Assembly (NCBI GenBank): GCA_965200155.1
Contig: CBDATR010000010.1
Coordinates: forward strand, 448,001-512,000
DNA: 64,000 nt
Origin: Nitrosopumilaceae archaeon
GTDB taxonomy: Archaea; Thermoproteota; Nitrososphaeria; Nitrososphaerales; Nitrosopumilaceae
Direction of reading: 5' to 3'
Both the position numbers and the translations under genes were made by a program. Position 1 is the first letter of the stretch. Every line of letters starts with the position of its first letter. This document shows positions 8,381 to 61,361 of this stretch, one piece after another. Under the pieces are notes generated by a model that was given only the letters and a program-made list of their open reading frames with translations, was not told the origin of the DNA and did not search any database.

Positions 8381-8479
8381 GTATGAGTTCACCTGTGTCT
8401 AAATTTACGCACAACTGATAGAACCGGTTACCAGTTAATGTGATTTGTGCACAAGATTCCGGAAGACATGAACTCATAC
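8381..8479 (-). mobile_element. MITE-1 variant A (99 bp)
   Basis: Centre AGAACCGGTTAC; no TSD, replaces about 11 bp present in the IS5 copy near 63545. Confidence 0.9.
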
Positions 8480-8534
8480 CATTAATTTAGTGGATTTTCT
8501 GATGAGTAATATTCGAATTATAATAACACGGAAA

Positions 8535-9701
8535 TTATGGACAGATATTTTTCAAGAATTTCTTGTACCTGGTATGCTTGTGCATAATGTGTAAATTATG
8601 CAACCCAGATACTACGAGTAGATCTTCCCGGAATTCCTCACGACTGCCATCATATACCTGACTTAATCTACGATATACCTTTAGCATTCGAATTACATTC
8701 TCGATTAATATGCGCCTTTTTGATACATATTGGTTGTATTTCCTTTCAGTTTTAGTGAGTGATTCCCTACCCCTGTATGGAATTATGACCTTTGCGCCGG
8801 GTAGGAAGTCTTTCATACCCTGGTATCCTGCATCTGCTATTACTGTTATCTTATCGGATGGTGGCGTGGTTGATTCTTTTAGGGACTTGCCCCATTTGCC
8901 ACCGAGGGGAATATCATTCTTGAATATACCATAATCGTGTCTTTTTCCCTCATATACTCCACTTACGTGAATTATCAGTCTTTTCTTGTTTGATGTTATC
9001 TGTACGTTATACGTGTGGGTTTTTTGTTTACCAGAGTACATTGCCTCCTGATTTTTTTTAGGACGTTGTACGCGTACATGTGTCCCGTCAGTCTTTATCT
9101 CCCCTCCGGCTCGGCCTGGAACAATTTCCTTAAAGTCGGGTGTTGACTTGATTTGTGATATTGCTTTTGCAACGGTATCTGCCGTTGGAAGTATCTTGAT
9201 CAGTCCCTGCTTTGTAAACTGGATGTAACGGCATATGTTTGACTGGTTTATCTTGAGTATTGCTGCCAGCAGCTCCTGCTTTGTATTGCAGCGCAGGCGT
9301 ATCAGTGTAACTAAGAGTACATGCCTGACCGGAAATTTGTTCACATGGCCGCGATCATTTGTAAGTTCTAAGAATCGCCGTGCATCATCGCCTTCCAGGG
9401 ACTCTACGTATTCTGTGAATCTGGTTAGTATCCATTTGAACTCTTCCGGGGTGCATCCGGTCAGGGAATGAAGCTGATCCTTGCGTTCTATGATGTCATC
9501 AAGATTTGAAACGAGGGCATTCTTTGTTTGAGCTTCAAGTTTGGCGTGCAGGTTTGTTACTTCGGCCTCGGACCTGGTGCGTAGCCGGTAGTACTCTGTG
9601 ACTAACTGCTCCCTGGTGAGTTCTTCTGCTTTTAGCATACCTGGTATTACAAAATTAGGTCTTAACTTTTCTGTTTCACACGAGTCTGTGGGAAAACCCA
9701 T
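8535..9701 (-). CDS. IS5-family DDE transposase, intact
   Basis: SLTG HTH region, TDGT, YSGK, HD, ADAGYQG and RILIENVIRMLKVY motifs. Confidence 0.9.
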   Translation of the reverse strand: MGFPTDSCETEKLRPNFVIPGMLKAEELTREQLVTEYYRLRTRSEAEVTNLHAKLEAQTKNALVSNLDDIIERKDQLHSLTGCTPEEFKWILTRFTEYVESLEGDDARRFLELTNDRGHVNKFPVRHVLLVTLIRLRCNTKQELLAAILKINQSNICRYIQFTKQGLIKILPTADTVAKAISQIKSTPDFKEIVPGRAGGEIKTDGTHVRVQRPKKNQEAMYSGKQKTHTYNVQITSNKKRLIIHVSGVYEGKRHDYGIFKNDIPLGGKWGKSLKESTTPPSDKITVIADAGYQGMKDFLPGAKVIIPYRGRESLTKTERKYNQYVSKRRILIENVIRMLKVYRRLSQVYDGSREEFREDLLVVSGLHNLHIMHKHTRYKKFLKNICP

Positions 9702-10384
9702 GATACTAGGTCAATTGTTCGTATCTAACAACTTGGTTTAGACGTGCAGGGTGGGAGAAGTGATTCTGCGCATACGGTCTATTGCGCGATACCCAGATTG
9801 CAGGATTCTATATTGATCCCGGTGCTCAGGACGCCCGGATCAAACTTGACAACGATTTGATCCGGAGCGCATGTGAATCGCTGTGGGCCGTCCGCGCAAA
9901 TTGAGGCAGGAGCAGAATCCATTCTACATTAATGATACTGAACTACAGAAGGGATTGAATAAAGGCATGTTCGTATTCCTATATGTGGAGCCCACCAATA
10001 GAGCAGTGGAACCGGTTCTGATACGCAGTGGTATTCCGGAAACATTAGTGGTTAGATAAAGGGTGTAATGCGCCGCATGTCCATATGTGTTCAGACATGG
10101 GGGGCTCAGGGCCTTTCTGTAATGAACGAGGTTGCTGCCAGAATGCAATTATAATTAAAAAACTTGGATGCATTCTATCTTATTATGTGATCAAAACACG
10201 TGAACTCATACCTAAATTTACGCACGACTGGTAGCCGCGGTTAAATGTTTGAGAACGTGGTTGGGGAATACATGATCTCATACAGTCACTTGAGGGTGAG
10301 CAGGGCTTCCGTACTGGAATATGCACAAGACATGCAGTATAAGGAACATGGATTTCTATCACTACCGCGATATACTACGAATCC

Positions 10385-10476
10385 GTATGAGTTCACGTCT
10401 TCCGGAATCTTATGCACAAATCACATTAACTGTCGCGATCAGTTATGCGTAAATTTAGACACAGGTGAGCTCATAC
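10385..10476 (+). mobile_element. MITE-1
   Basis: TSD ACGAATCC. Confidence 0.95.
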
Positions 10477-10946
10477 ACGAATCCCACTTCAAAAATCTAG
10501 ACAGATACTAACAATCTATTACGTCAGGCGTAAAAATTCAAAGGTTCTACATGCAGGCTGAGTAGTCTACTAAATCTGGGAAACAGCTTTGCCCAAACTA
10601 CCATAAAATATCAATGCGCGCACCACTTTGGTGTGATGGGATGTTTCGGGGAACAGCGCAGTCACTCTCAGGCAAGCCTGGGGCAGCCTGCCTCACACCA
10701 CTTCGGCGGTTTTCTATCCACCAGGCCCGGCGCGCTCAATTTGTTGAAGATGGATTTTGATGATTTCCCGTAAAAAACTGAGTCATTCTTAAATCTGTCG
10801 CCGTACCAAGTAGTAGATTTGCTTCAACATTCACCTAAGTTACGACTTTAACAAGTTAGTGGGGACATGGACTCATGCTGTATCGTGGATTAGTTGTACA
10901 TCACACATAGTATGTGTTTTCCTCCATTCATAATGAACCTAATTTA

Positions 10947-11038
10947 GTATGAGTTCACCTGTGTCTAAATTTACGCATAACTGATCGCGACAGTTAATGT
11001 GATTTGTGCATAAGATTCCGGAAGACGTGAACTCATAC
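10947..11038 (-). mobile_element. MITE-1
   Basis: TSD CTAATTTA. Confidence 0.95.
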
Positions 11039-13482: not shown

Positions 13483-15177
13483 GTATGAGTTCACGTGTTT
13501 TGATCACATAATAAGATAGAATGCGTCCCAGTTTTTTTAATTATAACTGCATTCTGGCAGCAACCTCGTTCATAACAGAAAGGCCTTGAGCCCTCCATGT
13601 CTGAACACATGATACAAATGTAGACATGCGGCGCATTGCCCTTTCGCCACCCTTTATCTGACCACTAATCTTGCGGAATACCACTGCGTATCGCAAAGCC
13701 TGCTCCGCTGGATTGTTGGTGGGCTCTACACAGTCATATTCTAAGAATACGAACATGCATGGTATGGCCTTATTCAATCCTTTTACCTTCTTTTGTAGTT
13801 CAGTATCATCAACATCACAGTACTGATGCAGAATGGATTCTGCTCCTGCCTCAAATGAGTGTCGTAATTGCGCGGACGGCCCGCAGTGATTCAGGGATTC
13901 CCGTGCGCTCCGGAACAATCCTTTCAGGTCGTTGTCAAGTTTGATCCGGGCGTCCTGAGCACCGGGATCGATATAGAATCCTGCATGTAATGCCTGGGTA
14001 TCGCGCAATAAATGCGCCCAACACAACTGGTGCTTCCCACCGTCATCAAACCGGCGGTACACAACGTACCTGTCTGTGACTATCGCGCCCTGGTAACCGT
14101 TCGGGTATTTGTTCACTACATTTGAACTCCTACTTTTGTCATATATGGACATCATCCACTCTTCGGCCCGCATCCCCCATACCCAGCCACGCCTACCCGC
14201 CAGTGATATACCAGTTTCGTCCACATGAATGCTGGGTGATTTTATTATATTCTCATGAATTGTTTCCATAAATGATTCACATGCATCGGCGGCCCTGGCA
14301 ATTATGTTGTTTACTGCACCCACCGATATATTTAGGCCGAAGAGATCCCTCGAAATTACAGGTATGCGTTTTATTGGAATCTTTTCCGCACGCAATGCAG
14401 TGATGGCACCGCATAATTGAACCCCAAAACTACCACTCTTTGGGACGCCCGCTGCTGGGGCCAGTTGTTTTTTGCCGCACTTGCATGCAGCCATTTCTAT
14501 CACATGAAGGGTCTCCTCTATTTTGGCTGGTATTAATTCCGTTATGTGTCGTTGTTTCCAACCAATTTTTGTCATCATATTGCCGCACTCACATAGTGGA
14601 GTATGCTCAAAGGTGTGATGCACTACTCTGCCGGGGTTGTGGGAACGGGAAACCCCCTTGTGTCCCTTTTGCGCGCCAGCCTTTTTGGCTGATTTCGTAC
14701 TGGCTTCTGTCTGTTGCTTATTATCTCCCTGTTTTCGCTTCTGTTCCTCCTGTTTTCGCTTCTTGTACTGGAGGGATTGAAGGGATGGTGGCGAGTGAGC
14801 ATTCTCATAATATTTAAGTCGCGTTGTGAGTACCGCAATTTTCCTGTCTTTTTCTACTAATTCCTCTTTTAATTCACTTACATAATTTCTAATAATTTGG
14901 AAATCTTGTATATGATTTCGTATTTCTTTTATGGTGTGTGACATATATGCTTCCAATACTCTCACACGTTCCTTGTAATGTGCAAGATCTTTCTTGTAAT
15001 CCTCAATATCTTTCTTGATAGACGCAAGGGTATCCTGAAGAAGTTTATTTTCCAGTTCCAATTCCTTATAGGACCGGCGTCTTCTCATTAGATTCTTATT
15101 GCAAATTTGGTATTTAAGTAAAATATTGCCATACCAATCTATATCTTAGTGAATGATCAAAACACGTGAACTCATAC
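13483..15177 (-). mobile_element. IS66-family (single-ORF, ISBst12-type) insertion sequence, complete; likely driver of MITE-1
   Basis: 24-bp TIR GTATGAGTTCACGTGTTTTGATCA shares its terminus with MITE-1; no TSD retained. Confidence 0.9.
13541..15088 (-). CDS. IS66 transposase (TnpC-like), intact
   Basis: Coiled-coil N-terminus, GAQKGHKG, HVDETG, TDRY, QLCWAHLLRD and PTNNPAEQALR motifs. Confidence 0.95.
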   Translation of the reverse strand: MRRRRSYKELELENKLLQDTLASIKKDIEDYKKDLAHYKERVRVLEAYMSHTIKEIRNHIQDFQIIRNYVSELKEELVEKDRKIAVLTTRLKYYENAHSPPSLQSLQYKKRKQEEQKRKQGDNKQQTEASTKSAKKAGAQKGHKGVSRSHNPGRVVHHTFEHTPLCECGNMMTKIGWKQRHITELIPAKIEETLHVIEMAACKCGKKQLAPAAGVPKSGSFGVQLCGAITALRAEKIPIKRIPVISRDLFGLNISVGAVNNIIARAADACESFMETIHENIIKSPSIHVDETGISLAGRRGWVWGMRAEEWMMSIYDKSRSSNVVNKYPNGYQGAIVTDRYVVYRRFDDGGKHQLCWAHLLRDTQALHAGFYIDPGAQDARIKLDNDLKGLFRSARESLNHCGPSAQLRHSFEAGAESILHQYCDVDDTELQKKVKGLNKAIPCMFVFLEYDCVEPTNNPAEQALRYAVVFRKISGQIKGGERAMRRMSTFVSCVQTWRAQGLSVMNEVAARMQL

Positions 15178-15621: not shown

Positions 15622-16065
15622 AAAAGGATTGAATAAGGCCATACCAGGCATGTTCGTATTCTTAGAATATGACGGTGTGGAGCCCACCAACAATCCAGCG
15701 GAGCAGTGGAACCGGTTCTGATACGCAGTGGTATTCCGCAAGATTAGTGGTCAGATAAAGGGTGGTGAAAGGGCCATGCGCCGCATGTCCATATGTGTTC
15801 AGACATGGAGGGCTCAGGGCCTTTCTGTAATGAACGAGGTTGCTGCCAGAATGCAATTATAATTAAAAAACTGGGATGCATTCTATCATATTATGTGATC
15901 AAAACACGTGAACTCATACCTATATCTTAGTGAATGATCAAAACACGTGAACTCATACTGTTCATGCTTGACTGATTGTGTGTCATAAAATACACCCCAG
16001 TTTGAAGCAACCTAGGCTGTTACTGTCAATCATGCGTATAAGGTCTAATATATCGTCCATGTGGT

Positions 16066-19174: not shown

Positions 19175-19903
19175 GTATGAGTTCACGTGTTTTGATCATT
19201 CACTAAGATGTATAGATTGGTATGACAATATTTTGCTTAAATACCAAATTTGCAATAAGAATCTAATGAGAAGACGCCTGTCCTATAAGGAATTGGAACT
19301 GGAAAATCAGATTCTTCAGGATACCCTTGCGTCTACCGAGAAAGATCTTGCACATTACAAGGAACGTGTGAGAGTATTGGAAGCATATATTTCACGCACC
19401 ACAAAAGAAATACGAAATCTCACACACGATTTCCAAATTATTAGGAATTATGTAAATGAATTGAATGAGAAATTAGAAGAAAAACAGGGGAAAATTGCGG
19501 TAATCACAACGCGACTTAAATATTATGAGAATGCTCACTCGCCGTATGAATTCACGTCTTCCGGAATCTTATGCGCAAATCACATTAACTGTCGCGATCA
19601 GTTATGCGTAAATTTAGACACAGGTGAACTCATACTGTTCGTATTCCTAGAATATGACAGTGTGGAGCCCACCAACAATCCAGCGGAGCAGTGGAACCGG
19701 TTCTGATACGCAGTGGTATTCCGCAAGATTAGTGGTCAGATAAAGGGTGGTGAAAGGGCCATGCGCCGCATGTCATATGTGTTCAGACATGGAGGGCTCA
19801 GGGCCTTTCTGTAATGAACGAGGTTGCTGCCAGAATGCATTTATAATTAAAAAACTGGGATGCATTCTATCTTATTATGTGATCAAAACACGTGAACTCA
19901 TAC
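19175..19903 (+). mobile_element. Internally deleted IS66 derivative with both TIRs
   Basis: About 1 kb of transposase core replaced by a MITE at 19544. Confidence 0.9.
19544..19635 (+). mobile_element. MITE-1
   Basis: Sits at the deletion junction; no TSD. Confidence 0.9.
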
Positions 19904-32589: not shown

Positions 32590-32636
32590 CCAAACATTAT
32601 AGACAAACTTAAAATGCTCAATGCCATAGCCGGAGC

Positions 32637-40437: not shown

Positions 40438-40529
40438 GTATGAGTTCACCTGTGTCTAAATTTACGCATAACTACTCGCTATAGTTAATGTGATTTGTGC
40501 ATAAGATTCCGGAAGACGTGAACTCATAC
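40438..40529 (-). mobile_element. MITE-1 with compensatory stem change
   Basis: Centre AACTA-CTCGCTA-TAGTT; no TSD. Confidence 0.9.
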
Positions 40530-40594
40530 CATTCATTAGTGCCTTAATCTTAGTGCAACCTAATTTTGGTACACTTGAGTCCATATCATTCACA

Positions 40595-41773: not shown

Positions 41774-41845
41774 AGCTACAAACAAAAGATCTAGAAGAAA
41801 ATACTCAGACTCTGGTTAAACGCGAATAACATCGCGAACAACTCC

Positions 41846-42283: not shown

Positions 42284-42472
42284 TTCTTGTGTGATGCTCT
42301 AAATGATTTATTACAAACCCGCATCCGCGGTACGTCAATAATGGTTGCTCACCAGTAGTATGAGTTCCGGTATTTCTCGATTGCGTGATAAGATCGCACT
42401 AATCCCTGTCATCGGTTATGTGTAAACGTGAGTATGAATAAACACACAATCGTCTAATTTTTAACCCTCACA

Positions 42473-43402
42473 ATGGAATGGCGCCCAGTGAAATCGATAA
42501 ATTTTTCTCTTCTGGCCGGCGAGGAAATAGCTTCTACACTGGGAAAGCGGGGAACACAGACGGATATTACATTATATGACAAAAAAGAGTCAGGCATCAT
42601 ACGTACATACGTGGTGCCCAATGGGTTTCCGGAAAAGATACAATCATTACTTCAGGCAATAAACTTGGCTGAATATGCAATAATCCACTTGGATACACTG
42701 GACCGGTTTGCTGGCGAACAAATACTGGCTTTGGATGCATTACGACGTACTGACGGCATACTGAGTCATAACATCAATGTGGATCACGATTCGGTTCTCC
42801 GTGCAGTAAAGGATACCGTGGTGGAAAAGTACCGGTTTGTAGAACCTTCCGATATACGGGTAGATACGCTAAACTTTGATCCAATGGTGAAACACGGGGA
42901 TGCCCGGGTAGTCGTGGATCACTGCTTTGATGTCAAGGGTGTGGGGACCGTTGCCTTGGGCAGGGTGATATCTGGCAGTATCTCAAAATATGACACACTT
43001 GTCCTTCAACCTCGTGGAGTACAGGCTACAATCAAATCTATACAGATGCATGATGATCCAGTAGGGGATGCGATATCGCCCGCTCGGGTGGGATTGGCAT
43101 TAAAGGGCGTACGGCCTGATCAGGTAAGGCGAGGTGATGTACTGTGCGGCGGTACGATGCCCATAGTATCTGATACAATATCCCTGAATTTCACGAAAGT
43201 GCAGTACTACAAAGGCGAGCCCACAGTCAACCAGATGTGTATTGCAAGCGTGGGTTTGCAGGTTGTATCGGGCAAGATATCATCCACAGAACCGCTAAGC
43301 ATATCCTTGGATAGGCCAGCAGTATATGAAATAGGAGAGCGATGCGTACTGCTCAAGCCTGAATCGTCTATACGAATAATGGGTAGTGGTGCCCTATTGT
43401 AA
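42473..43402 (+). CDS. SelB/EF-Tu domain II-like translation factor lacking a canonical G domain (aSelBL-like)
   Basis: VDHCFDVKGVGTVALG, IKSIQMHD and RVGLALKG motifs. Confidence 0.8.
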   Translation: MEWRPVKSINFSLLAGEEIASTLGKRGTQTDITLYDKKESGIIRTYVVPNGFPEKIQSLLQAINLAEYAIIHLDTLDRFAGEQILALDALRRTDGILSHNINVDHDSVLRAVKDTVVEKYRFVEPSDIRVDTLNFDPMVKHGDARVVVDHCFDVKGVGTVALGRVISGSISKYDTLVLQPRGVQATIKSIQMHDDPVGDAISPARVGLALKGVRPDQVRRGDVLCGGTMPIVSDTISLNFTKVQYYKGEPTVNQMCIASVGLQVVSGKISSTEPLSISLDRPAVYEIGERCVLLKPESSIRIMGSGALL

Positions 43403-43504
43403 TGGCCTGCATATGTGGTACAAAATTACATGAGGGACAGCAGTGGCTGTGATTTCAACCATCACTCAGGTAACAGTAATAAACCATCTTGATTAAACGG
43501 AAAC

Positions 43505-43957
43505 ATGAATCGCCGTGTACCTTTGGTGATAATGGCGGTTGTAATTGCCGCCATTGTGTCTTATGCCATAAGCCCGTACTTTATGGAGTCGGAGGTGTAT
43601 GAGGAGTTGCCCGATACGGTGACAATTTCCGATGACATGATTGCATACGGTGGTACGTTTGTGGGTGTTGGTGACGGCATCCATGATGCCCAAGGGGTGG
43701 CATCTGTACTCGTACAGGATGATGGCAGCTACCTGTTGCGCCTAGAAGAGTTTAGATCCACCAACGGTCCTGATTTGTACGTATATCTATCCACTGACAA
43801 GGGCATAGACGACTTTGTAAGTCTGGGTAATTTGAAGGCAAATCGCGGTGATCAAAACTACGAGATTCCTGCTGGCACGGACATAGAGCAACACGATCAC
43901 GTCCTGATATGGTGCAAGCCCTTTAGTGTACTCTTTGGTAGTGCACAGCTTGAATAG
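43505..43957 (+). CDS. DM13 domain protein
   Basis: NGPDLYVYLS, LKANRGDQNY and IWCKPFSVLFG motifs. Confidence 0.9.
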   Translation: MNRRVPLVIMAVVIAAIVSYAISPYFMESEVYEELPDTVTISDDMIAYGGTFVGVGDGIHDAQGVASVLVQDDGSYLLRLEEFRSTNGPDLYVYLSTDKGIDDFVSLGNLKANRGDQNYEIPAGTDIEQHDHVLIWCKPFSVLFGSAQLE

Positions 43958-43971
43958 CGTCGTGGTGCCAG

Positions 43972-44343
43972 TTGAGGCTGTTTGGAGATCCGCAGAAAAA
44001 GAAGAATGCCCAGCAGGCAGGCAAGATACGTAGCCTAGTGAAGGAGAAAAAATACTCTGACGCACTAAGGGTGGGACAAGAGTATCTTACACGTGTTCCC
44101 GACAACCATGATGTCTTGTTTATAATGGGCGGCATACACTACATGCGAAAGCAGTATGGTAAGGCACTAAAGTACTTTGAAGCTGCACTTCAGATAGGCA
44201 GGTATGATACCGATGTGTTGATACTAAAGGCCCAGTGCCACATGCGGTTAGGTCAAATTCAGAAAGCCAGAATGTGTTGCGAAGATATCCTGGAAGTAGA
44301 TCCCAAAAACCGTGAGGCACGTGACATAATTAACCGCACCTAG
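43972..44343 (+). CDS. TPR repeat protein
   Basis: Two to three TPR motifs. Confidence 0.8.
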   Translation: MRLFGDPQKKKNAQQAGKIRSLVKEKKYSDALRVGQEYLTRVPDNHDVLFIMGGIHYMRKQYGKALKYFEAALQIGRYDTDVLILKAQCHMRLGQIQKARMCCEDILEVDPKNREARDIINRT

Positions 44344-44408
44344 TACGTATCCATATCTTTTCCAACTATATGACCAGATAATATTCTCCCACTCCGCGTG
44401 GAGATATT

Positions 44409-45218
44409 CTAAATGTCTAACCCAATATCCAGGGCAGGGGCCGAGTTAGTCATGGAGCCCACTGATACATAGTCTGCACCACTACTTCCGTACAACTCTA
44501 TGTTGCCTGCTGTAATGCCGCCTGATGCCTCCAGCTTTACTGTGTCCCTCAATCCATCTCTTACAAGTGCTGATACGGTTCTCTGTATATCTTCTGGCGT
44601 AAAATTGTCCAGCAGTATGAGCGGCGCCCCAAATCTTGCTGCGCGTAACGCATCTTGTATCGTATCTACCTCTACCTCAAAGTGTGCACTCTTCTTCTTG
44701 GCGCACTGTATGATTCTGTCCAGGGATCCCTCTATTGCTATGTGGTTGTCTTTTATCATTATCATCTCTCCCAGATTCATGCGGTGGCGCTTGCCACCCC
44801 CGGCTTCCACTGCCTCCTTGTCAAATCGTCGCAGGCCTGGGGCTGTCTTCCTGGTGGACAGAAGCGTCACATTGGGGGGTAATCGTGAAGACAGGGTGGC
44901 GGCCATACTGGCTATGCCGCTCATGCGCGACAGCAGGTTCAGTGCGGTTCGCTCTAGGGAGAGTATATCCGAGGCCCTGCCCGCGACGGTCATGATTTTC
45001 TCTCCCGACTCTACGGCACATCCATCCTTCACTATAATGTTGCATGTGCATCCCCGTGTCTCAAATATTGTCTTGGCGTGGAGTGTGCCGGATATTGTAC
45101 CTTCCTGCCGTGATACTATCCGTCCGGTTATATGCACGTCCGGAAGTAGATCCGATGTAGGATCCCCCTCGCCCAGATCCTCCTCTAAAAAACCAAGTAT
45201 GACATCATTCGAGGACAA
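44409..45218 (-). CDS. nadC: Quinolinate phosphoribosyltransferase
   Basis: TRKTAPG, HRMNL, KDNH, LLDN and EASGGI motifs. Confidence 0.95.
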   Translation of the reverse strand: MSSNDVILGFLEEDLGEGDPTSDLLPDVHITGRIVSRQEGTISGTLHAKTIFETRGCTCNIIVKDGCAVESGEKIMTVAGRASDILSLERTALNLLSRMSGIASMAATLSSRLPPNVTLLSTRKTAPGLRRFDKEAVEAGGGKRHRMNLGEMIMIKDNHIAIEGSLDRIIQCAKKKSAHFEVEVDTIQDALRAARFGAPLILLDNFTPEDIQRTVSALVRDGLRDTVKLEASGGITAGNIELYGSSGADYVSVGSMTNSAPALDIGLDI

Positions 45219-45225
45219 ATTCCGG

Positions 45226-45414
45226 TCAGGTTATTCTAAGGGCATACTTGCCCCTGCGGGTTACCCCTAATGTATGTCCTATCTGAGACCCATTGGGCTC
45301 GACCACCAGTGCAATGCCGGTCCAGTCCGGTGTAAGATCCGAGGACTTGCAGGCAGGACATACCTTGCCTGTTGTGACAAACTTACACTTGCGGCATGCC
45401 ATCTCGCGTCCCAT
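45226..45414 (-). CDS. spt4: Transcription elongation factor Spt4 (RpoE'')
   Basis: ACRKC...CPAC...W.G...GKYAL. Confidence 0.95.
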   Translation of the reverse strand: MGREMACRKCKFVTTGKVCPACKSSDLTPDWTGIALVVEPNGSQIGHTLGVTRRGKYALRIT

Positions 45415-45417
45415 CTA

Positions 45418-46011
45418 TTACTCCTCCTTGCTGGATCCCCCGCCTTCTGCATTGGTCACCTCTTCGTTTATCCATTCATTAGTACCTAGGAACGGCTGCC
45501 TGCATGTGATTCCTATCTTGCCCAATGATGCACCCTTGCCTAGGGATACTGCCGTAATACGTGATCTAAGTTTTGATCCAACACGTAGTGTACGTCCGCT
45601 TTGATTGGCAACTATAACTCCTGCCTTTACATCACTTCGTAGATAATCATTCATCACCTGGGACAGGTGTAGAAGGGCATCTGATGGGCCTATTCTCACA
45701 AATGCTCCAAAGTCTGTTATATCCACAATTTCGCCGTTCACAATCTCGTTCATCTTTGGATAGAATGTGAGCGCCTCAAATTCCACCCGGTGGAATGTAC
45801 CACTATCTCCTGATACCATCTTTCCCATCTCGTCCACATTTGCATCCAGTATGATTATGATGTATCCCAGATCCGCGCTTATGGATGACTCGTACTTTTC
45901 CTTGAGTGTGCTTATGGCAGCCTTGCGTAATGCTGTGCCAAAGAGATCTGGCGGGATCCTGACTACATCGATCATGGTCGTTATGGAAAACAACTGTAAT
46001 GACAACCTCAT
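45418..46011 (-). CDS. rpo7: RNA polymerase subunit Rpo7 (E')
   Basis: VRIPP, FGAFVRIGP, LLHLSQV and TCRQPFLG motifs. Confidence 0.95.
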   Translation of the reverse strand: MRLSLQLFSITTMIDVVRIPPDLFGTALRKAAISTLKEKYESSISADLGYIIIILDANVDEMGKMVSGDSGTFHRVEFEALTFYPKMNEIVNGEIVDITDFGAFVRIGPSDALLHLSQVMNDYLRSDVKAGVIVANQSGRTLRVGSKLRSRITAVSLGKGASLGKIGITCRQPFLGTNEWINEEVTNAEGGGSSKEE

Positions 46012-46170
46012 GGTTTCATTTTATGAACCTTTGTGTTGATTGGGCGATCATTTAAGATATGCTGGATATGCTAACGCTTGGGATATGTGCCCGTATTCTG
46101 TGTGTGCAGTGACGCTGTGGTTTGGCAGCAAGTGCCGCCTTGAATCGGCTTTTGAGTGACCTCCGCCAAG

Positions 46171-46262
46171 GTATGAGTTCACCTGTGTCTAAATTTACGC
46201 ACAACTGATCGCGACAGTTACTGTGATCTGTGCACAAGATTCCGGAAGACGTGAACTCATAC
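46171..46262 (-). mobile_element. MITE-1
   Basis: TSD CCGCCAAG. Confidence 0.95.
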
Positions 46263-46375
46263 CCGCCAAGTGTCATACAGAACAGGATTCACACTACCCT
46301 GCCTGCCTTGATAGAGTATGTTATACTGTTGGATTATCTAAAAATAAATAATGCCATAATATGGTTTAGACTATA

Positions 46376-47461
46376 ATGGTTGGTGTAGATCAGGTGCTTG
46401 AAAAGCTGGCCACTGTTATAGATCCGGACCTGAAGAAGGATATAGTATCAATGGGCATGATTAAGGATCTGGAGATTGATGGGGGAGATCTCAAATTTAC
46501 GCTGGAGCTCACCACACCTGCGTGTCCCTTCAACGCGGAAATAGAGGATGATGTCAGGAATGCCGTCAATACCATAGACGGAATTGCTAACTTTGACATG
46601 AAAGTTACTGCCAAGGTGATGGAGGGCAGGTCCTTGGAGGACGATACTGGGATGACGACGGTAAAAAATATCATCGGTGTTGCCAGTGGCAAGGGTGGTG
46701 TTGGTAAGTCTACAGTATCTTTGAATCTTGCACTGGCACTATCTCAGAGTGGCGCAAAAGTGGGATTGCTGGATGCTGACATATACGGTCCTAGCGTACC
46801 GCTTATGCTGGGCATGAAAGATGGATATATGGAGGTGGAGGAGAACAAGTTACAGCCCGCCCAATCACACGGTATACGCGTTGTGTCCTTTGGATTCTTT
46901 GCGGAGCAGACCCACCAAGCCGCCATATATAGGGGGCCTATAATATCTGGTATACTACGACAATTTCTGGTTGATACCAATTGGTCTGATCTGGATTATC
47001 TTGTAGTTGATCTACCTCCCGGTACCGGTGACATACCCCTTACGCTGGCGCAGACTATACCCATAACGGGCATACTGGTAGTGACCACGCCTCAGGATGT
47101 TGCAAGTAACGTGGCAGTCAAGGCTATAGGCATGTTTGAAAAACTAAATGTTCCCATAATTGGTGTTGTGGAGAACATGAGCTCCTTTGTATGCAATAAA
47201 TGCGACGCCAAACACCACATATTTGGCCAGGGCGGTGCCGAGGCAATAGCGAAGCAGTTCGACATACCATTCTTGGGCGAGATACCACTTAATTCTGGAA
47301 TAATGAGTGGCTCAGACTTGGGCAAGCCCATAATGATTACAGATTCGGAGTCGGAAGGTGCAAGCTCGTTTAGGACCGCTGCAAGAAATGTTGCTGCCCA
47401 ATGTAGTATACTGGCTGCCAAACTACAGGAGCAGACAACTACTGATTCGGATTCGGCGTGA
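46376..47461 (+). CDS. mrp: Mrp/ApbC/Nbp35 Fe-S carrier ATPase
   Basis: DUF59 N-terminus; SGKGGVGKST, DADIYGPS, DLPPGTGD and ENMS..C..C motifs. Confidence 0.95.
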   Translation: MVGVDQVLEKLATVIDPDLKKDIVSMGMIKDLEIDGGDLKFTLELTTPACPFNAEIEDDVRNAVNTIDGIANFDMKVTAKVMEGRSLEDDTGMTTVKNIIGVASGKGGVGKSTVSLNLALALSQSGAKVGLLDADIYGPSVPLMLGMKDGYMEVEENKLQPAQSHGIRVVSFGFFAEQTHQAAIYRGPIISGILRQFLVDTNWSDLDYLVVDLPPGTGDIPLTLAQTIPITGILVVTTPQDVASNVAVKAIGMFEKLNVPIIGVVENMSSFVCNKCDAKHHIFGQGGAEAIAKQFDIPFLGEIPLNSGIMSGSDLGKPIMITDSESEGASSFRTAARNVAAQCSILAAKLQEQTTTDSDSA

Positions 47462-47973
47462 AACTACCTGTTAGACACCGCCATCTGTTTAAGGATCCCA
47501 TGGGTTTGCTGATCGCAGACTCTGATGTTACAAAGAAACTGGTGTCCAAAGAACTGGATGGTTTCTGTCATATAGTAACGGTAGGAGATCGTACCACCGA
47601 ACGCATTCTGGGATTTGAGCTAAAACCGGATGTACAAATAGTTGATGGTCTGGAACAGAGACAAAAGCGATCCGTACCGGGAGAGTTTCTGGAAACTATA
47701 ACATGCATTAACCCAGCCGCTAACATAACTGATGATGCGGTATCTGCCGTGATTAAGGCATATTCCATGAAGAGACCCACTAGAATATTGGTCAACGGCG
47801 AGGAGGATCTGTTGGTGGTGCCCGCTCTGTTACATGCCCCAAAAGACACCATAGTTCTGTATGGCCAACCTGGGCAGGGGTTGGTTTTTGTAGTAGCAGA
47901 TAATACATCTAGGAATAGGGCTGCTCATATGATGGAGTTGCTGGAACGGGATGATGAGACGGTGGCTGAATGA
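47458..47973 (+). CDS. GTP-dependent dephospho-CoA kinase (DUF359)
   Basis: TVGD, NPA, GEEDLL and YGQP motifs. Confidence 0.9.
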   Translation: MKLPVRHRHLFKDPMGLLIADSDVTKKLVSKELDGFCHIVTVGDRTTERILGFELKPDVQIVDGLEQRQKRSVPGEFLETITCINPAANITDDAVSAVIKAYSMKRPTRILVNGEEDLLVVPALLHAPKDTIVLYGQPGQGLVFVVADNTSRNRAAHMMELLERDDETVAE

Positions 47974-48056
47974 ATGCATGATTACAATACCAAAGTATCT
48001 GACCTCCAGCAACCACCTTACGGGCGCACCGGTATGACTGGGAATGCATATCTTTG

Positions 48057-48134
48057 GTGTGAGTTCACCTGTGTCTAAATTTACGCATAACTGATCGCGA
48101 CAGTTAATGTGATTTGTGCATAATATTCCGGAAG
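48057..48134 (-). mobile_element. MITE-1, truncated by IS481
   Basis: Last ~14 bp missing. Confidence 0.85.
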
Positions 48135-49326
48135 TCAATAGTACGAAAAGTAAGTCCGCTTAGGATCCGGCGTACAGTAGTCCAGATTGCACAAGCCAGA
48201 TGGTAAAGAGAATAACAGAGGAATCAAGACAAAAGAGGCGTTGCCGCCACCAAAATAGCTCAAGACCTGAAACAAGGCACGTACGAAGATTGTGAACCAG
48301 AGAACGGGAACGACTCGAGTAAAGATAGGCAGGTCCATGATACTAATCACCGCCACCCAGATACGAATGGTAACTGAAGCATACAGCAAGGATCCCGCAG
48401 GAGTAGTACGTATTGCAAAGAGGCTTAGACAGAATTACAATATATCATATCGCGCAGTATATCGCATAATGAAAAAGAACGGTACGGCAGGATCATCACC
48501 TGCAAAGTCAGAGTGGGTACGCTATGAGCGTAAATATTCCAATGCAATGTGGCACGTAGACTGGCATGTCATGAAAGATGGTATGAGTTCACGTCTTCCG
48601 GAATCTTGTGCACAAATCACATTAACTGTCGCGATCAGTTATGCGTAAATTTAGACACAGGTGAACTCATACAAGTTAAGACCTAATTTTGTAGTATCAG
48701 GTATGCTAAAAGCAGAAGAACTCACCAAGGGTATGAGTTCACGTCTTCCGGAATCTTGTGCACAAATCACATTAACTGTCGCGATCAGTTGTGCGTAAAT
48801 TTAGACACAGGTGAACTCATACGAAAGATGAGCGCTTCAAGGGACTGAATCTCATAGTTGATGCATCCAGGTGTATAGTCGGAGCGGCACTATTTGAGCA
48901 TGCAACATGAGAACACCGTTCTATTACTGAGACTGGTAATGAAACGATTCGGCGCCCTTGCATCTCGGATAACGGCGCGTGTCTCGTAGGACAATAAAAG
49001 GGCAAGAAAAGCTGGAAACCCACTATTCGAGGAAGAACTGCTGGATCAAGACATCATACTAATCAATTCCAGACCATACCACCCGCAGACAAATGGCAAA
49101 CTGGAGCGCTTCCCTAGAACGATTGAGGATGAGATATGGCATTATGACAGTCTCCGGGATTATGTGGACTACTACAATGAGAGAAGATTGCACTTCTCAC
49201 TGGATATAGATAACGACGAAACACCACTCCAGGAATAAAAAGGCGACCCAGACAATTAGGGCAAATGATGCAAAATGGATGGAGTGGGATGCCAATGACT
49301 AGCGGACCGACTTTTCATACATTACA
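48135..49326 (+). mobile_element. IS481-family element, decayed, containing a composite MITE insertion
   Basis: Homologous to 36020-36977. Confidence 0.85.
48581..48822 (+). mobile_element. Composite: MITE-1 (48581-48672) + 58-bp IS5 fragment + MITE-1 (48731-48822)
   Basis: A single TSD GAAAGATG flanks the whole unit. Confidence 0.9.
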
Positions 49327-49397
49327 CACAAATATTCTGGAAACTGATTAACTATATTGCAGCGTGCATTTCTGCATACAATAACTTGTAGATGAAA

Positions 49398-49492
49398 TGG
49401 TGGACCGGGTGGGATTCGGACCCACGACCTTTGCGGGATTACTCCTTACGCAGTGTGAGTGCGTCATCCAAACCAGGCTAGACGACCGGTCC
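49398..49492 (-). tRNA. tRNA-Val(CAC) with a 17-nt non-canonical intron (49430-49446) and encoded CCA
   Basis: GGACCGG/CCGGTCC acceptor; ACGCA-CTCACAC-TGCGT arm; BHB motif TGCG-TAA-GGA-GTAA-TCC-CGCA-AAG. Confidence 0.9.
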
Positions 49493-49652
49493 ATAGTCTG
49501 GCAGTATTGTGTGCTTTTTGTTTCTTTTGGTGTGTGCCACTCTACTACATTATCGAGAGTCTATCTGGCTTGTCGTATTATGTGGTATTCGTGGCTGTAC
49601 TGTAGAAAATAGTGCAGAAATACAGAATTAAAATCTGGTACCAAAGATTTTG

Positions 49653-49751
49653 GTATGAGTTCACCTGTGTCTAAATTTACGCATAACTGATAGAACCGGT
49701 TACCAGTTAATGTGATTTGTGCATAAGATTCCGGAAGACGTGAACTCATAC
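49653..49751 (-). mobile_element. MITE-1 variant A (99 bp)
   Basis: TSD AGATTTTG; centre AGAACCGGTTAC. Confidence 0.95.
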
Positions 49752-49776
49752 AGATTTTGTGCATCTTGTAGACTTG

Positions 49777-50364
49777 TTAATGTTCATAGACTGGTTTGTT
49801 TACACCAAATTCTAGATTATTTATCTTGTAATATATTATCTCGCCACGACGCTCTATTATTGCTATGACCGGCTTTTTTCCCATCCTGGCCATTTCATTT
49901 ATTTTTTTCTGAAAGGAACCGGCATTCTCCCGATGCCCTTCGGAAAATCCAAATACAAGAAATTTGGATCCTTTTACACCAAAATGAGTTCTATCGTACA
50001 CACGAAAATCTATGCCAAAGCCGAATCCGTCCTTGGGTACGTAACCGCGAGTGCGAAGATCTCTGTATATTAAATATTTTGAGAATGCGTTTGGATCGAC
50101 CTTCTGGTATGATTCCAATAAAGTATCAAAGTCCAGTTTATTTCTACCCTCTCTTACTACCAGTTTTTCTGTTGCCACTAGATATAGCGCCTCAAATGGT
50201 TTTAGATTATACCCGTCCGGTTCTTGATCGCCAAAGCCATCACTACTGAATGCATGTATGACTTCCTCGGACAGTATCCTGATACGGTCGCCGATCAGGC
50301 GCCCCTTGGCCGGTGGACGCTTCACTGAGAAATGATCGCTGCCTTGTACCGTGACATCACTCAT
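49777..50364 (-). CDS. endA: tRNA splicing endonuclease subunit
   Basis: L..FEALYL and IYRDLRTRGYVPKDGFGFGIDFRVY motifs. Confidence 0.9.
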   Translation of the reverse strand: MSDVTVQGSDHFSVKRPPAKGRLIGDRIRILSEEVIHAFSSDGFGDQEPDGYNLKPFEALYLVATEKLVVREGRNKLDFDTLLESYQKVDPNAFSKYLIYRDLRTRGYVPKDGFGFGIDFRVYDRTHFGVKGSKFLVFGFSEGHRENAGSFQKKINEMARMGKKPVIAIIERRGEIIYYKINNLEFGVNKPVYEH

Positions 50365-52958: not shown

Positions 52959-54788
52959 GTAACCGTTTAGGTCGCACCATGACTTAACCATATATTCTGA
53001 TTAGTCCAATACACGACATATGGAAGACCCCGAGGTTGAGATTCTACGGGACAAGTTAGCCAAGGTCATGGCTGAATAAGAAAGAAACACCAAAATGAAG
53101 AGAAAGATTTGATTATCCGCCGGTTGTCTTAGAGGGAGGATCTGGAGTCAACCAATGCGAGGAAACGTAAAGAATTGGCATTGCGTGAGGAATATTTAGC
53201 TCAACTAAGGTAGCGTATGAGTTCACGTCTTCCGGAATCTTATGCACAAATCACATTAACTGTCGCGATCAGTTATGCGTAAATTTAGACACAGGTGAAC
53301 TCATACAAGGTAGCAGCTCAACCGCAAGCACATACTAATTTGCTCAATAACTGACGGATGGTACATCCAGAAGTCAAAATACTGCGAGACAAACTAGCCG
53401 GATCTATAGGCGCTAACGGTAAACTGATCAGAATAATCAAAGGGAAAGACATGATCATCGAGATACAATCAGAGAGGATTACAAGGTTGGAGACAACGTT
53501 GAAGATAATACTCGCAGCGAGGGATGTGGAAGTAAAATCATTAAAGAATCGTCTCCGATACTATGAAAGCCCGCATACCCCAACCATCACAGAACTCCAT
53601 TCAGAAGATGAAAAAAGCCGCAAAGAAAAAGGTAAACGCCACTCAAGCGAGGCCGGAGGAGCGGGCACCCAGGAAAATCCCACAACAGAAGGCCTGGCAA
53701 AATAGTCCGCAAGACCCCTGACAGGTGTTCAAAATGCGGCTCTAAAAACCTGGAAAAGACCGGCAACACCACAACAGACATACCCGTTATTCCGAAAGCC
53801 GAGGTTACCGCGCACATAATAGAGGAGTGCCGGTGCCTAGAAGTCATAACATTACGGATATGGTACATGAACCCGGAGTGATCCCGGGCACACAATTTGG
53901 ACCCAACTTATTGACCATGATCACCACTGCATATTACAATGGTTCCACACTGCAGGGTATCGCGTACACCATGAAAATGTACGATGCAGGCTCCTGCAAG
54001 GCAGCAATACAGCACACCATGGAAGCTGCATCTGAAAAAATGGAGAAAGAGGTGGGAAAAATCCGGGAGGATTTGGCCAAATCCTAGACCATACTGATGG
54101 ACGAGACCCCCCTCTCGCTGAACGGCAAGACTGTATACGCGTGGGCGTGCAGTGGAAATGACAGCATAGCATACAAGCTGGCCACCTCACGCTCATCGGA
54201 GATAATCAAAATGTACTATTCAGACATACTGGACAAGCTAATCACGTGTGACGGATATGCCGGATATAACATATTTTACAATATACGAGGTGCTGGGCAC
54301 ATATTACGGGAATCAAAAGATGCATCCGAGGCCCGGCCCACCGGAAACATTACATAAAATGCTTCAGGATATACGCCGAGGCCCGGGACTTGAATCCTGA
54401 AGAGACGACTCCGGATATCCTAGATTCGTTCGAGATACGTGTGCTCTCCATAGCCACCCGGTGGCAAAAGCTGGGTGTAAAATTCGGCAATAAGCTGGAA
54501 GGGCATCTCCAAATCTGTTTACATTCCTGCGCTACCCCGGAATGGCACCCACTAATAACGAGTCTGAGCGCGTGCTGCGCCGCTTCGTCATACATCGCAA
54601 GATACGCATGTCTTGGGGCTCATACAAGGGTATGAAGGTAGTAGAGAACATCCTGACCTGCATGATAACGTGGAGAAAGCGCGGACTCAACACAGATACT
54701 GTCCATACTTGGGGCAAGTTAAACGACCATACCAAGAACAATCTGGTGTAGTGCATTTCTCTTTGCTAAGGGTGACCTAAACGGTTAC
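52959..54788 (+). mobile_element. IS66 element (GTAACCG-ended family), transposase pseudogenised; probable parent family of MITE-2
   Basis: TIRs GTAACCGTTTAGGTC / GACCTAAACGGTTAC; MDETP, TCDGYAGY and PTNNESERVLR fragments; duplicated N-terminus. Confidence 0.85.
53215..53306 (+). mobile_element. MITE-1
   Basis: TSD AAGGTAGC. Confidence 0.95.
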
Positions 54789-55279: not shown

Positions 55280-55530
55280 GTAATCGTTTAGGCCGCCCCT
55301 AGTCAACCGTTCAAAAATACGCCGCGAACATAACTGCTCTTGTTTTGTATGAGTTCACGTCTTCCGGAATCTTGTGCACAAATCACATTAACTAGAACAA
55401 CCTGTTCCATCAGTTGTGCGTAAATTTAGACACAGGTGAACTCATACCTTGTTTTTTCTAACATGATATCACATATACCCGTAAATTTGCCGTCCTGATG
55501 CCTGATCTTTAACCCGACCCAAACGGTTAC
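55280..55530. mobile_element. MITE-2 interrupted by MITE-1
   Basis: GTAATCGTTTAGG...CCCAAACGGTTAC; interior homologous to 11988. Confidence 0.75.
55347..55447 (+). mobile_element. MITE-1 variant B (101 bp)
   Basis: TSD CTTGTTTT; centre AGAACAACCTGTTCC. Confidence 0.95.
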
Positions 55531-59351: not shown

Positions 59352-59470
59352 AACGCCAGCACTGTTGCTTCCCAAGAGCTCTCGCACCTTAGTAACACAA
59401 CAGCGACACTAGGTTTGACTTCCAAGTTCGGAATGGGATTGGGTCGCACCCTAGCGCTATGGCCGGCTTG
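59352..59470 (-). rRNA. rrf: 5S rRNA
   Basis: GGCCATAGC...ACCCAATCCCATTCCGAAC...GAAGTCAAAC; about 119 nt with paired ends. Confidence 0.95.
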
Positions 59471-59807
59471 TCACTTGTCATTATTGGGCCATTTATTAAG
59501 GTGGCGGAAAGTGTCACGATTTCACAGAAATCCGGGATAAATGGTACCTATGGAATGCCAACTGCTAGAACAGGACCCGCCATATGGTAACCGTTTAGAT
59601 CACCCTCGGCATACTTGTTTCTACTCAACTTCCTGTTCCGGGTAGCCAAAACCTAGACTAACGTATTTTGAAATTGTATAGCCTTCGGTCATCGTGATAA
59701 CCCCCGCAAACTCGTACCCGGACTTTTGGTTTTTTGTGTTACCTAGATAGTTACTGTCAGGAATGCGGAATATGGTAAATATAGATGAATATCAGATTGA
59801 ATGTTAA

Positions 59808-60941
59808 GTGTTGGTATTATTCACCCCCGAACTAGTTTCACACCGTAAACTAGACATACTGTTTCTAATGGGCATATCCCTAGTCTTTCTTGCCCCCGGA
59901 AGCACCTTTGCGGTAGGCGAGTATATAGAGTATGACATAATAGCGGATTATCATTTGTCGTTGCTGGATACGTACATCTTTTATGGTGACACGCTTGCAG
60001 GTGAAGAGTATTTGATACTTGATGAGTATAGTACAGTGCTCTCTGATTACATCACACTGCTGGCTGAATATATTCTCTATTATGATGAGTTGAGCGCATA
60101 CGAGTCATTTGAGTACACCATACAGTTAGACGAGGACATAATTTTACTGAAGGTGTATGTCACACTGCTAGATGGGTACATTTTTGACGATTATAGAGGA
60201 CATTTTGTTCCTGTTTATAGACCGGATTATGTATCATATTATGGCGTAGGGACATGGTTGTACGATATTGACTTTCTCGAGGCAGAGGCAGATTGGCTTA
60301 ACGAGACGTTCTATTTACCATATGATGTTATTATAGCGGCCTCCGAATGTGGTGAGGAAAATGCATTTTATAACTCCTATTACAAGATGGTTATCCTATG
60401 TTATGAGCTTGTAGATCATCTTTTTGACATATACTACGAGTTCAACGGAGATAATGAAAGCTGTTTTGATATAATTTATGATGGTACAGTTGAGGAAGTC
60501 TGTGAAAGTGCAACGGACTTTGTATTTGCTAATGTATATGCGGCATTATACCACGAGATGGGGCACGCCGTACTGGGCATCTATAACCTGCCATATACCG
60601 GCCTTGAGGAGAACGTGGCTGATCAGTTTTCCGGTTTGGTACTTAGTCGCACTGAAGGTGGATATGACATGATGCATAATGTAGCAAAGTATTGGCAGTA
60701 CTCGTCTGAGTCATCAGAACCGATACCGTGGGATACACATGCGGGGGACCTACAACGATTCTATAACATATCATGCTATGTGTATGGGGCAGATACATAC
60801 TACAACGCGTTTCTGGTCGAAGATGGACTACTCCCCGAAGACCGTGCCGTATGGTGCGAGGAGGAATACGAGCAAATATCATATGCGTTTGGGCATCTGC
60901 TGTATGATTACAATAACGGCTTTTTTAATCACATTCCATAG
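59808..60941 (+). CDS. DUF4344-like exported zinc metallopeptidase
   Basis: ECGEENAFY, LCYE, YHEMGH, EENVADQF and H...QRFYNISC motifs. Confidence 0.8.
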   Translation: MLVLFTPELVSHRKLDILFLMGISLVFLAPGSTFAVGEYIEYDIIADYHLSLLDTYIFYGDTLAGEEYLILDEYSTVLSDYITLLAEYILYYDELSAYESFEYTIQLDEDIILLKVYVTLLDGYIFDDYRGHFVPVYRPDYVSYYGVGTWLYDIDFLEAEADWLNETFYLPYDVIIAASECGEENAFYNSYYKMVILCYELVDHLFDIYYEFNGDNESCFDIIYDGTVEEVCESATDFVFANVYAALYHEMGHAVLGIYNLPYTGLEENVADQFSGLVLSRTEGGYDMMHNVAKYWQYSSESSEPIPWDTHAGDLQRFYNISCYVYGADTYYNAFLVEDGLLPEDRAVWCEEEYEQISYAFGHLLYDYNNGFFNHIP

Positions 60942-61065
60942 ATATGTGACCCTTGTCCCGATATTGTGAATATCACTCATTAACTAGTGTGGTTCTTTAC
61001 TCATGTCTATGGCTCCAAGTTGTACAAGAATTTTTCGTAGTATTTCCCCCAAGAACGCGGTAGTG

Positions 61066-61158
61066 GTATGAGTTCAGTTCTTCCTAAATCATGTTGGACT
61101 AATGATACTGATCATTGCAATCTGCCGTACGTAAAATTAGGCTTAGCTGAACCCATAC
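61066..61158 (+). mobile_element. Divergent MITE-1 relative
   Basis: GTATGAGTTCAG...CTGAACCCATAC, 93 bp. Confidence 0.7.
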
Positions 61159-61260
61159 GTATGGTCTGGAAGATATACGTTTGCGCAGATTATAGCGGTC
61201 ATCATAAGTCTTTGGGCGACTAATTTGATCAAAATAACACAATTATCACAGGCTTATTTG

Positions 61261-61361
61261 GTATGAGTTCACCTGTGTCTAAATTTACGCATAACTGATG
61301 GAACAGGTTGTTCTAGTTAATGTGATTTGTGCATAAGATTCCGGAAGACGTGAACTCATAC
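61261..61361 (-). mobile_element. MITE-1 variant B (101 bp)
   Basis: Centre GGAACAGGTTGTTCT; no clean TSD. Confidence 0.9.

Follow-up and report, generated by a model that had tools for sequence, protein, structure and literature searches.

The window analysed here, a stretch of 64,000 bases (G000:C10:448001-512000), comes from the genome of a sponge-associated archaeon of the Nitrosopumilaceae and carries insertion sequences (ISs) and miniature inverted-repeat transposable elements (MITEs) of several families, in which a few bases have been replaced by a short near-palindromic filler that we call a scar. The scars are a real, lineage-specific insertion-deletion signature of defined sequence, and they are concentrated in mobile elements. 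The pattern matches no described repair signature or transposon footprint, and no responsible enzyme was found in the assembly. The assembly G000, the genome under study, comprises 2,380,067 bases in 51 contigs, is 87.6% complete and was compared with nine congeners (among them G005, G006 and G008). Seven public runs from two studies contain the window stretch, four of them labelled sponge metagenome. The scars and related features of the window are as follows (bp, base pairs; aa, amino acids).

8336-8347, plus strand: GTAACCGGATCT, not a scar; a native subterminal part of an IS66-like right end, with 41 copies genome-wide, mostly GTGACCGG...
8420-8431, plus strand: scar AGAACCGGTTAC in a MITE copy of the 92-bp family (8381-8479); replaces CGCGA at site B, +7
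10007-10019, plus strand: scar TGGAACCGGTTCT in the first copy of a non-autonomous IS66 derivative
13693-13699, minus strand: unscarred IS66 reference allele, which on the gene strand reads GCAAAGC and falls near residue 464 in the intact transposase of 515 aa (open reading frame 13541-15088)
15707-15719, plus strand: inherited scar TGGAACCGGTTCT in the second copy of the IS66 derivative
19692-19704, plus strand: inherited scar TGGAACCGGTTCT in the third copy of the IS66 derivative
39134-39146, plus strand: GGGAACCGGTTCT, within a 5-copy MITE of ~270 bp whose inverted ends are like those of TnpB elements in congeners; an empty allele is not known
39198-39210, plus strand: TGGAACGGGTTAC, in the same 5-copy MITE of ~270 bp; one paralogue has 5 more bases, GGAAC-GGGTTAC-GTTCC
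40735-40747, plus strand: IS5-like scar GGGAACCGGCTCT, on the gene strand between RWIIEIII and FKRLFG; frame shifted
42174-42186, plus strand: scar GTAACCGGCTCCC in a tnpB remnant, directly after DINAAY; ~4 bases replaced (+8), frame shifted
49692-49703, plus strand: scar AGAACCGGTTAC, the 12-base form of site B, in a MITE copy (49653-49751) with its own 8-bp target duplication
52959-54788, plus strand: second-family IS66-like element of 1830 bp, degraded, with IS66-type motifs; its abutted tips equal a GTAAC-type scar
55394-55408, minus strand: scar GGAACAGGTTGTTCT, the 15-base form of site B, in a MITE copy (55347-55447); replaces CGCGAC, +9
61300-61314, plus strand: 15-base scar GGAACAGGTTGTTCT in a MITE copy (61261-61361)

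Structure of the scars

Scars are 11-15 bases long and consist of two inverted 5-base arms (RKAAC and GTTMY) flanking a variable centre of 1-7 bases, for which CG, C, G, AGGTT and GGGTCAT were seen. The half-sites GGAAC, AGAAC and GTAAC combine freely around a constant core, most of them being GGAAC or AGAAC, and the arms can differ within a single scar. The scar positions cited in an earlier sequence-only reading of the window all hold the letters given there. For ten events the earlier state is known, and the polarity of the change can be read directly: a filler of 7-15 bases took the place of 1-7, which lengthened the sequence by 6 to 9. That reading had also proposed that this gain comes with no target duplication, and this was borne out, as no scar is flanked by direct repeats and 253 contexts collected with a relaxed pattern gave just two chance repeats of 3-4 bases.

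The resolved events struck both palindromic and non-palindromic targets. Palindromic targets were the centre of TCGCGA (at least two events), the centre of TTCCGGAA and the loop of a 20-base hairpin element; TGTGA, TTACGC, GCTTTGC and approximately ACAT were hit as well and are not palindromic. In the hairpin element, which lies inside tnpB elements, the loop changed from T to GGAACCG in several copies, and one aligned copy retains the plain loop. Such hairpin micro-elements of about 20 bases (GGGGCGG-loop-CCCGCCC-AA), flanked by 4-base repeats, are found at 61 sites genome-wide, within tnpB elements as well as in tandem runs, with stem changes that compensate one another (e.g., C10:40161-40184 and window ~42216-42240).

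Later scars also occur within earlier ones, as in GGA-GTAACCGGTTAC-GTTCC and AGA-GTAACCGGTT.., and these second events sit at the centre of the earlier scar. In the nested cases GTAAC scars lie inside RGAAC scars, which suggests that the arm type may have changed over time.

Two further ideas were set aside. Removal of the scar as a bulge-helix-bulge mini-intron, or its avoidance by translational bypass, would by reasoning leave the lost bases unrestored, and 8 bases are too short for such an intron. The net gain of 6 to 9 bases was also considered as the trace of 8-9-bp duplications, but no model that we tried converts two duplication copies into a constant palindrome.

Abundance and recurrence of the motif

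Within the window, GAACCGGTTC with at most one mismatch gave 9 matches versus 1.16 expected, and RKAACSGGTTMY with at most one mismatch gave 26 strand-matches versus 4.9 expected; at least 9 and at least 26 matches, respectively, were reached in 0 of 100 shuffles. Exact GAACCGGTTC occurs 113 times in G000 and is the second commonest 10-base palindrome of the genome, the commonest 12-base palindrome being AGAACCGGTTCT. With the reversed motif as the control for genome-wide counts, RKAACCGGTTMY has 162 sites in the 2.38-Mb genome versus 4 for the control. Each of the nine congeners has 0-12 sites of RKAACCGGTTMY, with no enrichment in eight of the nine, and GAACCGGTTC occurs at most 10 times per genome in 40 other genomes of the order that were searched. 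G008 is the sole congener with an excess (12 sites versus 3 for the control), and 10 of its 12 sites lie in one repeat. This repeat, found on ten contigs, ends in ...CCCACC-GGAACCGGTTAT-ATT, and its copies diverge immediately afterwards. Judged from titles and abstract openings, no description of the motif or of such scars was met in the literature.

Comparison without bias of all repeated 12-mer flank pairs yielded 1,949 distinct short insertion-deletion events in the genome, and in 68 of these the longer allele is nearly palindromic. An AACC/GGTT core is present in 32 of the 68, roughly 14 others derive from the same scars by point mutation, and the remainder are mostly microsatellite. Scars make up ~0.08% of the genome.

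The 162 strict sites collapse to 29 sequence contexts, and we estimate roughly 20-25 independent scar events in the genome. One MITE was struck at several positions, and no fewer than six elements unrelated to one another carry scars; the proposal that independent events have recurred holds. Repeats of at least three copies contain 12 of the 29 contexts and 21.3% of genome positions (binomial P=0.012). Among the 17 contexts classed as unique are four diverged tnpB copies, two IS1595-like transposase sequences, one sequence resembling an end of a second IS66 family and two contexts that abut MITE-like fragments, which brings the number placed in mobile elements to at least 21 of 29; judging by the reversed control, chance would account for about 2-4 of the other 8. 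An orthologous empty site for one scar pair (C24 482700/482734), whose locus abuts MITE-like fragments, had no match in the nine congeners. A nearby template had been considered as a source of the filler. When the 150 bases on either side were searched, no 8-mer of the scar was present in 19 of the 29 contexts, which argues against a local template as a general cause, and the other 10 mostly adjoin another scar or a copy of the motif resembling a terminal inverted repeat.

Scars and inheritance in the 92-bp MITE

The 92-bp MITE (ends GTATGAGTTCAC...GTGAACTCATAC) has about 600 copies genome-wide, 32 of them in the window at 5054-63408. Among 585 oriented copies, 408 have the unscarred 92-bp form and 145 are scarred, with scars at four positions. 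At site A, TTACGC was replaced by GGAACGGGTCATTCT (+9). At site B, CGCGAC was replaced by GGAACAGGTTGTTCT (+9, 68 copies) and, in a separate event, CGCGA by AGAACCGGTTAC (+7, 20 copies). TGTGA gave way to AGAACCGGTTCT at site C (+7, 41 copies with C alone), and CCGG to GGAACCGGTTCC at site D (+8). The 408 unscarred copies provide the reference allele for the two forms in the window, which the sequence-only reading had rightly described as replacements (its variants A and B).

Perfect 8-bp target duplications flank 38 of 68 and 26 of 41 copies in two scarred classes versus 247 of 408 unscarred copies. Scarred classes thus have duplications as often as unscarred ones, which indicates that scarred copies kept transposing and that each class stems from one event. 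B-type and C-type scars were never seen together and A almost always accompanies C, so the scars mark MITE lineages. The scars in the copies reflect inheritance and not recurrence at each copy.

Positions 32 and 65 of the MITE (e.g., window 8412 and 8452), 33 bases apart, covary between T and C (unscarred copies: TT 177, CC 123, mixed 67) and flip even in lineages sharing several scars, for which read-polishing across copies is one possible cause. The presence of the same scar on T and C backgrounds was considered as proof of recurrence and rejected, because position 65 flips within lineages sharing 2-3 scars, while the exclusivity of B and C and the company of A with C mark lineages. The target consensus of the MITE is G-C-W, an A/T-rich 8-bp duplication, and W-G-C. 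A duplication is missing altogether from about 40% of copies (the distribution is bimodal), which suggests much inter-copy recombination or assembly joins through repeats. The MITE's target preference was rejected as the origin of AACCGGTT, since the 8-bp duplications are A/T-rich and only the tips of the second IS66-like family yield matches to AACCGTTT. Targeting of hairpin loops was likewise rejected: in predicted single-stranded DNA folds of four MITE sequences the four scar sites are not in loops, and the ensembles are diffuse.

Scars in transposase and TnpB genes

An IS66-family element is the autonomous partner of the 92-bp MITE, and its 515-aa frame (13541-15088) was confirmed by Pfam DDE_Tnp_IS66. 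The scar site reads GCTTTGC, unscarred, in at least 14 copies, and the derivative carries TGGAACCGGTTCT (+6), an inherited scar, in about 40. It falls at about residue 464 of 515, within the Pfam match (230-479), and the derivative gains two codons from the filler.

In tnpB the filler shifts the frame in every copy found. Six intact congener genes (G005, G006 and G008) read HADVNAA-x-NIL[YH]R[AV]AG, and all 30 of 30 frames in G000 read DINAA-x-S-(N/D)-(R/W)-.., with the former continuation LYGAAE or LHRAAE kept in another frame. About 4 bases became 12 (+8), two codons after DINAA, and the TnpB frameshift that had been proposed from a broken protein motif is confirmed by this comparison. A metagenome scan for scarred or unscarred tnpB alleles gave 0 matches. 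The assembly holds about 30 tnpB remnants with no Y1 or serine-recombinase transposase gene found in it, and intact tnpB genes, 450-470 aa in length, are numerous in G005 and G006.

The sequence-only reading had also described an IS903-group-type transposase motif as split and frameshifted by a scar. The filler is indeed present in 24 of 24 copies of this IS5-like element (~40595-41774) located by flank anchors; G000 has no empty allele against which the replacement itself could be read. In an IS1595-like gene the scar follows directly after HTN, the Pfam match ends at profile position 117 of 153 and the gene is cut short. All four scars in transposase or TnpB genes therefore lie in or just after conserved C-terminal motifs, which we take to hold the last catalytic residue of the four scarred nuclease genes.

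The 5-copy MITE (window 38960-39230) has inverted ends, GGAAATTATATACGAAAGTAGCAC, that resemble the end of a G005 tnpB element, and by these ends it is probably a tnpB-element derivative.

The second IS66-like family and its tips

The second IS66-like family has the ends GTAACCGTTTAGGTC...GACCTAAACGGTTAC, with tips GTAACCG...CGGTTAC, and some copies have 8-9-bp duplications. Its ends number 308 in G000 versus at most 13 in each of the nine congeners, and a scan of species genomes for the tip gave just 4 single matches, in unrelated bacteria, which were taken as chance. When the two tips are joined at their shared CG they form GTAACCGGTTAC, and when they are joined at TT/AA they form the 11-mers GTAACCGTTAC and GTAACGGTTAC; both forms were observed. 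The 92-bp MITE has repeatedly inserted at second-family tips with the duplication AACCGTTT, at 14 of 317 distinct sites within 2 mismatches (e.g., window 8382).

The sequence at 8336, which had been suspected as a local template (at ~8335), is the native right-end sequence listed above. We also considered it as a tip joined to an internal deletion, and rejected this, since conservation extends to the bases upstream and the genome has 41 copies of the string. Separately, the reverse complement of the hairpin core of the CRISPR (clustered regularly interspaced short palindromic repeats) repeat (..AACCGTTAGG..) resembles the second-family end (..AACCGTTTAGG..; e.g., 52959-52973) over about 10 bases, which may be chance.

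Enzyme and CRISPR searches

Enzyme searches cover the 87.6%-complete assembly, 12% of the genome being unassembled. Contig C50 is a contaminant, probably derived from the sponge host because it carries a eukaryotic-type long terminal repeat (LTR) retroelement (C50:20800-24114, with gag (CCHC), protease, reverse transcriptase (RT) and RNase H), and enzyme matches there were not counted as archaeal. An RT, a Prim-Pol or Ku had been suggested as candidate writers of the filler. The sole RVT_1 match in the assembly is this gag-protease-RT-RNaseH retroelement on C50, with no AACCGGTT nearby, and RT-templated writing of the retron, diversity-generating retroelement or telomerase-like kind was rejected since the only RT locus is of the eukaryotic LTR type. 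Ku (PF02735) had no match although the positive control was detected, which speaks against Ku/LigD end joining, and no Prim-Pol, Y1 transposase, serine recombinase or tyrosine recombinase was found. Present in G000 are two IS66-type families (one with the intact 515-aa frame), Cas1 and the tnpB remnants, and the IS66-family DDE transposases are its abundant cut-and-join enzymes.

The Cas1 match lies within a 555-aa open frame adjoining a CRISPR array (C9:69442-92087), which has 289 repeats, each 36 bases long, and spacers that mostly measure 36-38 bases. CRISPR self-targeting with escape mutations was rejected as a source of the scars, as 2 of 288 spacers partially match outside the array and neither match is in a scarred element.

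Discussion

We tentatively favour transposase-linked break repair as the source of the filler, with tails that would derive from IS66-type transposition chemistry. A break-and-rejoin event would have left both broken ends carrying a short defined tail (RKAAC plus 0-3 more bases), and the tails would have joined at a 1-2-base overlap (CG, or TT/AA), with few target bases lost, no target duplication made and a heritable product. The tails would most likely come from the transposition machinery of resident IS66-family elements, whose second-family tips are GTAACCG...CGGTTAC. On this view a transposase acting on other mobile DNA would have aborted its reaction or carried it out aberrantly, and microhomology joining would have followed. 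The identity of GTAAC-type scars with the two abutted tips of an IS66-like family resident in the genome favours a transposase-linked origin over a general repair pathway. The second family and the scars are both specific to G000 within the genus, most scar contexts are in mobile elements, and the variation of the centre between 1 and 7 bases resembles end joining. IS66-family insertion is itself drawn to scar-like sequence, as the MITE landing in AACCGTTT illustrates. Elimination leads the same way, as the other enzyme families were not found and IS66 DDE transposases are abundant, Cas1 being present also.

Several observations weigh against a transposase-linked origin. DDE integration should duplicate 8-9 target bases, whereas the scars lose 1-7 and have no repeats. 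The tips of the second family are overwhelmingly GTAACC (205, against ATAACC 9, AGAACC 2 and GGAACC 1), yet GGAAC and AGAAC make up most of the scar half-sites, and elements with RGAAC tips did not turn up in G000. Among the MITE copies listed, none has a full element at a scar site, in a comparison with noisy chaining in which inverted ends match both ways. A search for intermediate remnants of 14-84 bases gave 13 matches, which were multi-scar MITEs and chance pairs. The co-occurrence of family and scars rests on one genome, G008 lacks the second family but has 12 motif sites, 10 of which belong to a single repeat, and the enzyme could lie in the unassembled 12% of the genome.

The scars might instead be the work of an activity, present or recent, that recognises mobile elements and short palindromes including its own product, excises a few bases and writes an RKAAC/GTTMY palindrome, a view that we consider possible but on balance improbable. 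All four transposase and TnpB hits being at conserved C-terminal motifs, such an activity could disable or reshape mobile-element nucleases, or it could be a 12-base parasite of mobile elements. The sequence-only reading had proposed a dedicated system for sequence-specific end-tailing and joining, in which a defined oligonucleotide is added to both 3' ends by an RNA- or protein-templated step and the tails anneal at CCGG. The two inverted arms around a 1-7-base centre do fit two joined tails, as do the constant core, the free combination of half-sites, the few bases lost without duplication and the fact that most half-sites match no resident element tip. No tailing enzyme was found, however, there being no RT besides that of the host retroelement, no Prim-Pol and no Ku; a general repair system should also mark unique DNA, whereas mobile elements hold at least 21 of the 29 contexts, and eight of nine congeners show no excess of the motif. 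We therefore regard a dedicated tailing system as rather unlikely. Equally doubtful is a self-propagating micro-element, that is, a palindrome of ~12 bases itself moved by a symmetric nuclease or recombinase preferring short palindromes, earlier copies included. Second events at the centres of earlier scars (GGA[GTAACCGGTTAC]GTTCC, AGA[GTAACCGGTT..]), the share of the genome that scars occupy, and the palindromic or hairpin-loop targets among the resolved events are what such an element should produce. Other targets are not palindromic, though, predicted single-strand folds of the MITE keep its four sites out of loops, no serine, tyrosine or Y1 recombinase family was found, and arms that differ within one scar do not look like a copied unit.

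Three further accounts, namely ordinary footprints, switching of a local template and artefact, can for the most part be excluded. Excision footprints, or remnants of 'nearly precise excision' of nested IS66-like elements or MITEs, would account for the tip identity of the GTAAC class, and such remnants are known for other transposons; but the donor site must keep both copies of the 8-9-base duplication, and no context has them and target bases are missing. To lose target bases and yet keep the tips between them is geometrically impossible, and the remnants show no continuum of sizes. A full-length transposon with GGAACC/AGAACC termini, of which the scars could have been footprints, was searched for and not found. 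The missing duplications, the lack of intermediate remnants and the failure to see an occupied site argue that the scars are not ordinary excision footprints, and we give that account very little credence. Local template switching at each site (quasi-palindrome correction or snap-back synthesis) is just as improbable: two scars do form perfect 16-base palindromes with their flanks (AAAGAACCGGTTCTTT and TTGGAACCGGTTCCAA), but unrelated sites share one core, no 8-mer of the scar recurs within 150 bases in 19 of 29 contexts, and the supposed template at 8335 is native IS sequence. An assembly, polishing or adapter artefact could be suspected in a repeat-rich metagenome bin, the more so as short-read contigs from all four runs are 8 bases shorter somewhere in 42062-46196, a stretch that includes the tnpB scar, with 5-7 letter differences. 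The scar letters nevertheless occur in contigs of four runs from two studies, where loose ends read CAGGTTGTTC in all four runs and AACCGGTTCT in one, although these contigs stop at repeats and leave most scars unbridged; they match unique parts of 30001-50000 with 0 differences over 5.5 kb. Scarred copies stand at many loci, each with its own target duplication, and the scars carry later point changes, which makes an artefact exceedingly improbable.

Should the scars have been written by a transposase, they would represent an outcome of DDE chemistry not described before, in which tip bases are left on foreign DNA with loss of target, and a natural record of aborted transposition in an archaeal symbiont genome reshaped by about 600 MITE copies. 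A dedicated activity would amount to a novel form of sequence-defined DNA writing among prokaryotes, one that frameshifts the TnpB and IS5-like families in every copy found, shortens the IS1595-like gene and adds two codons to the IS66 derivative. Whatever their origin, the scars offer clean markers of lineage with which mobile-element bursts in G000 can be dated.

Comparison with known systems

Nearly precise excision of Tn10 and Tn5 leaves remnants of ~50 bp, which form when slippage occurs between repeats in the long inverted ends and which retain the 9-bp duplication. The scars are alike in being a short palindrome from two element ends, and differ in their 11-15 bases, the absence of a duplication and the lack of intermediate sizes. 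Filler DNA of alternative end joining and the P-nucleotides of V(D)J joining copy local sequence and differ at every site; like the scars they combine a small deletion with a short palindromic insertion, whereas the scars have the same core at 29 contexts, 19 of them without a local template.

Short palindromes that multiply within one genome, sometimes inside genes, offer a further likeness. Cyanobacterial HIP1, of 8 bases, spreads by substitution, and REP/RAYT, mitochondrial GC clusters and 'byp' inserts have at least 20-50 bases with defined targets or duplications; to our knowledge none of these exchanges a few bases for a palindrome of 12 bases or is restricted to other mobile elements. 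The scars differ from HIP1 in arising by insertion-deletion in 29 contexts that are mostly in mobile elements, and a HIP1-type genome-wide excess that includes unique coding DNA was not seen. As to a MITE- or REP-like unit, the core is constant across the 29 contexts and earlier scars are hit again, but there is no duplication, the arms vary independently and no Y1 transposase was found.

The footprints of Tc1/mariner and P elements retain a few bases from the tip of either inverted end, abutted at a junction that varies. Here the scars differ in having no flanking duplications, in losing target bases, in that most arms (GGAAC and AGAAC) match no resident tip and in the lack of filled alleles. 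They are alike in the variable junction and in the abutted tips, GTAAC-type scars being the abutted tips of the second IS66-like family.

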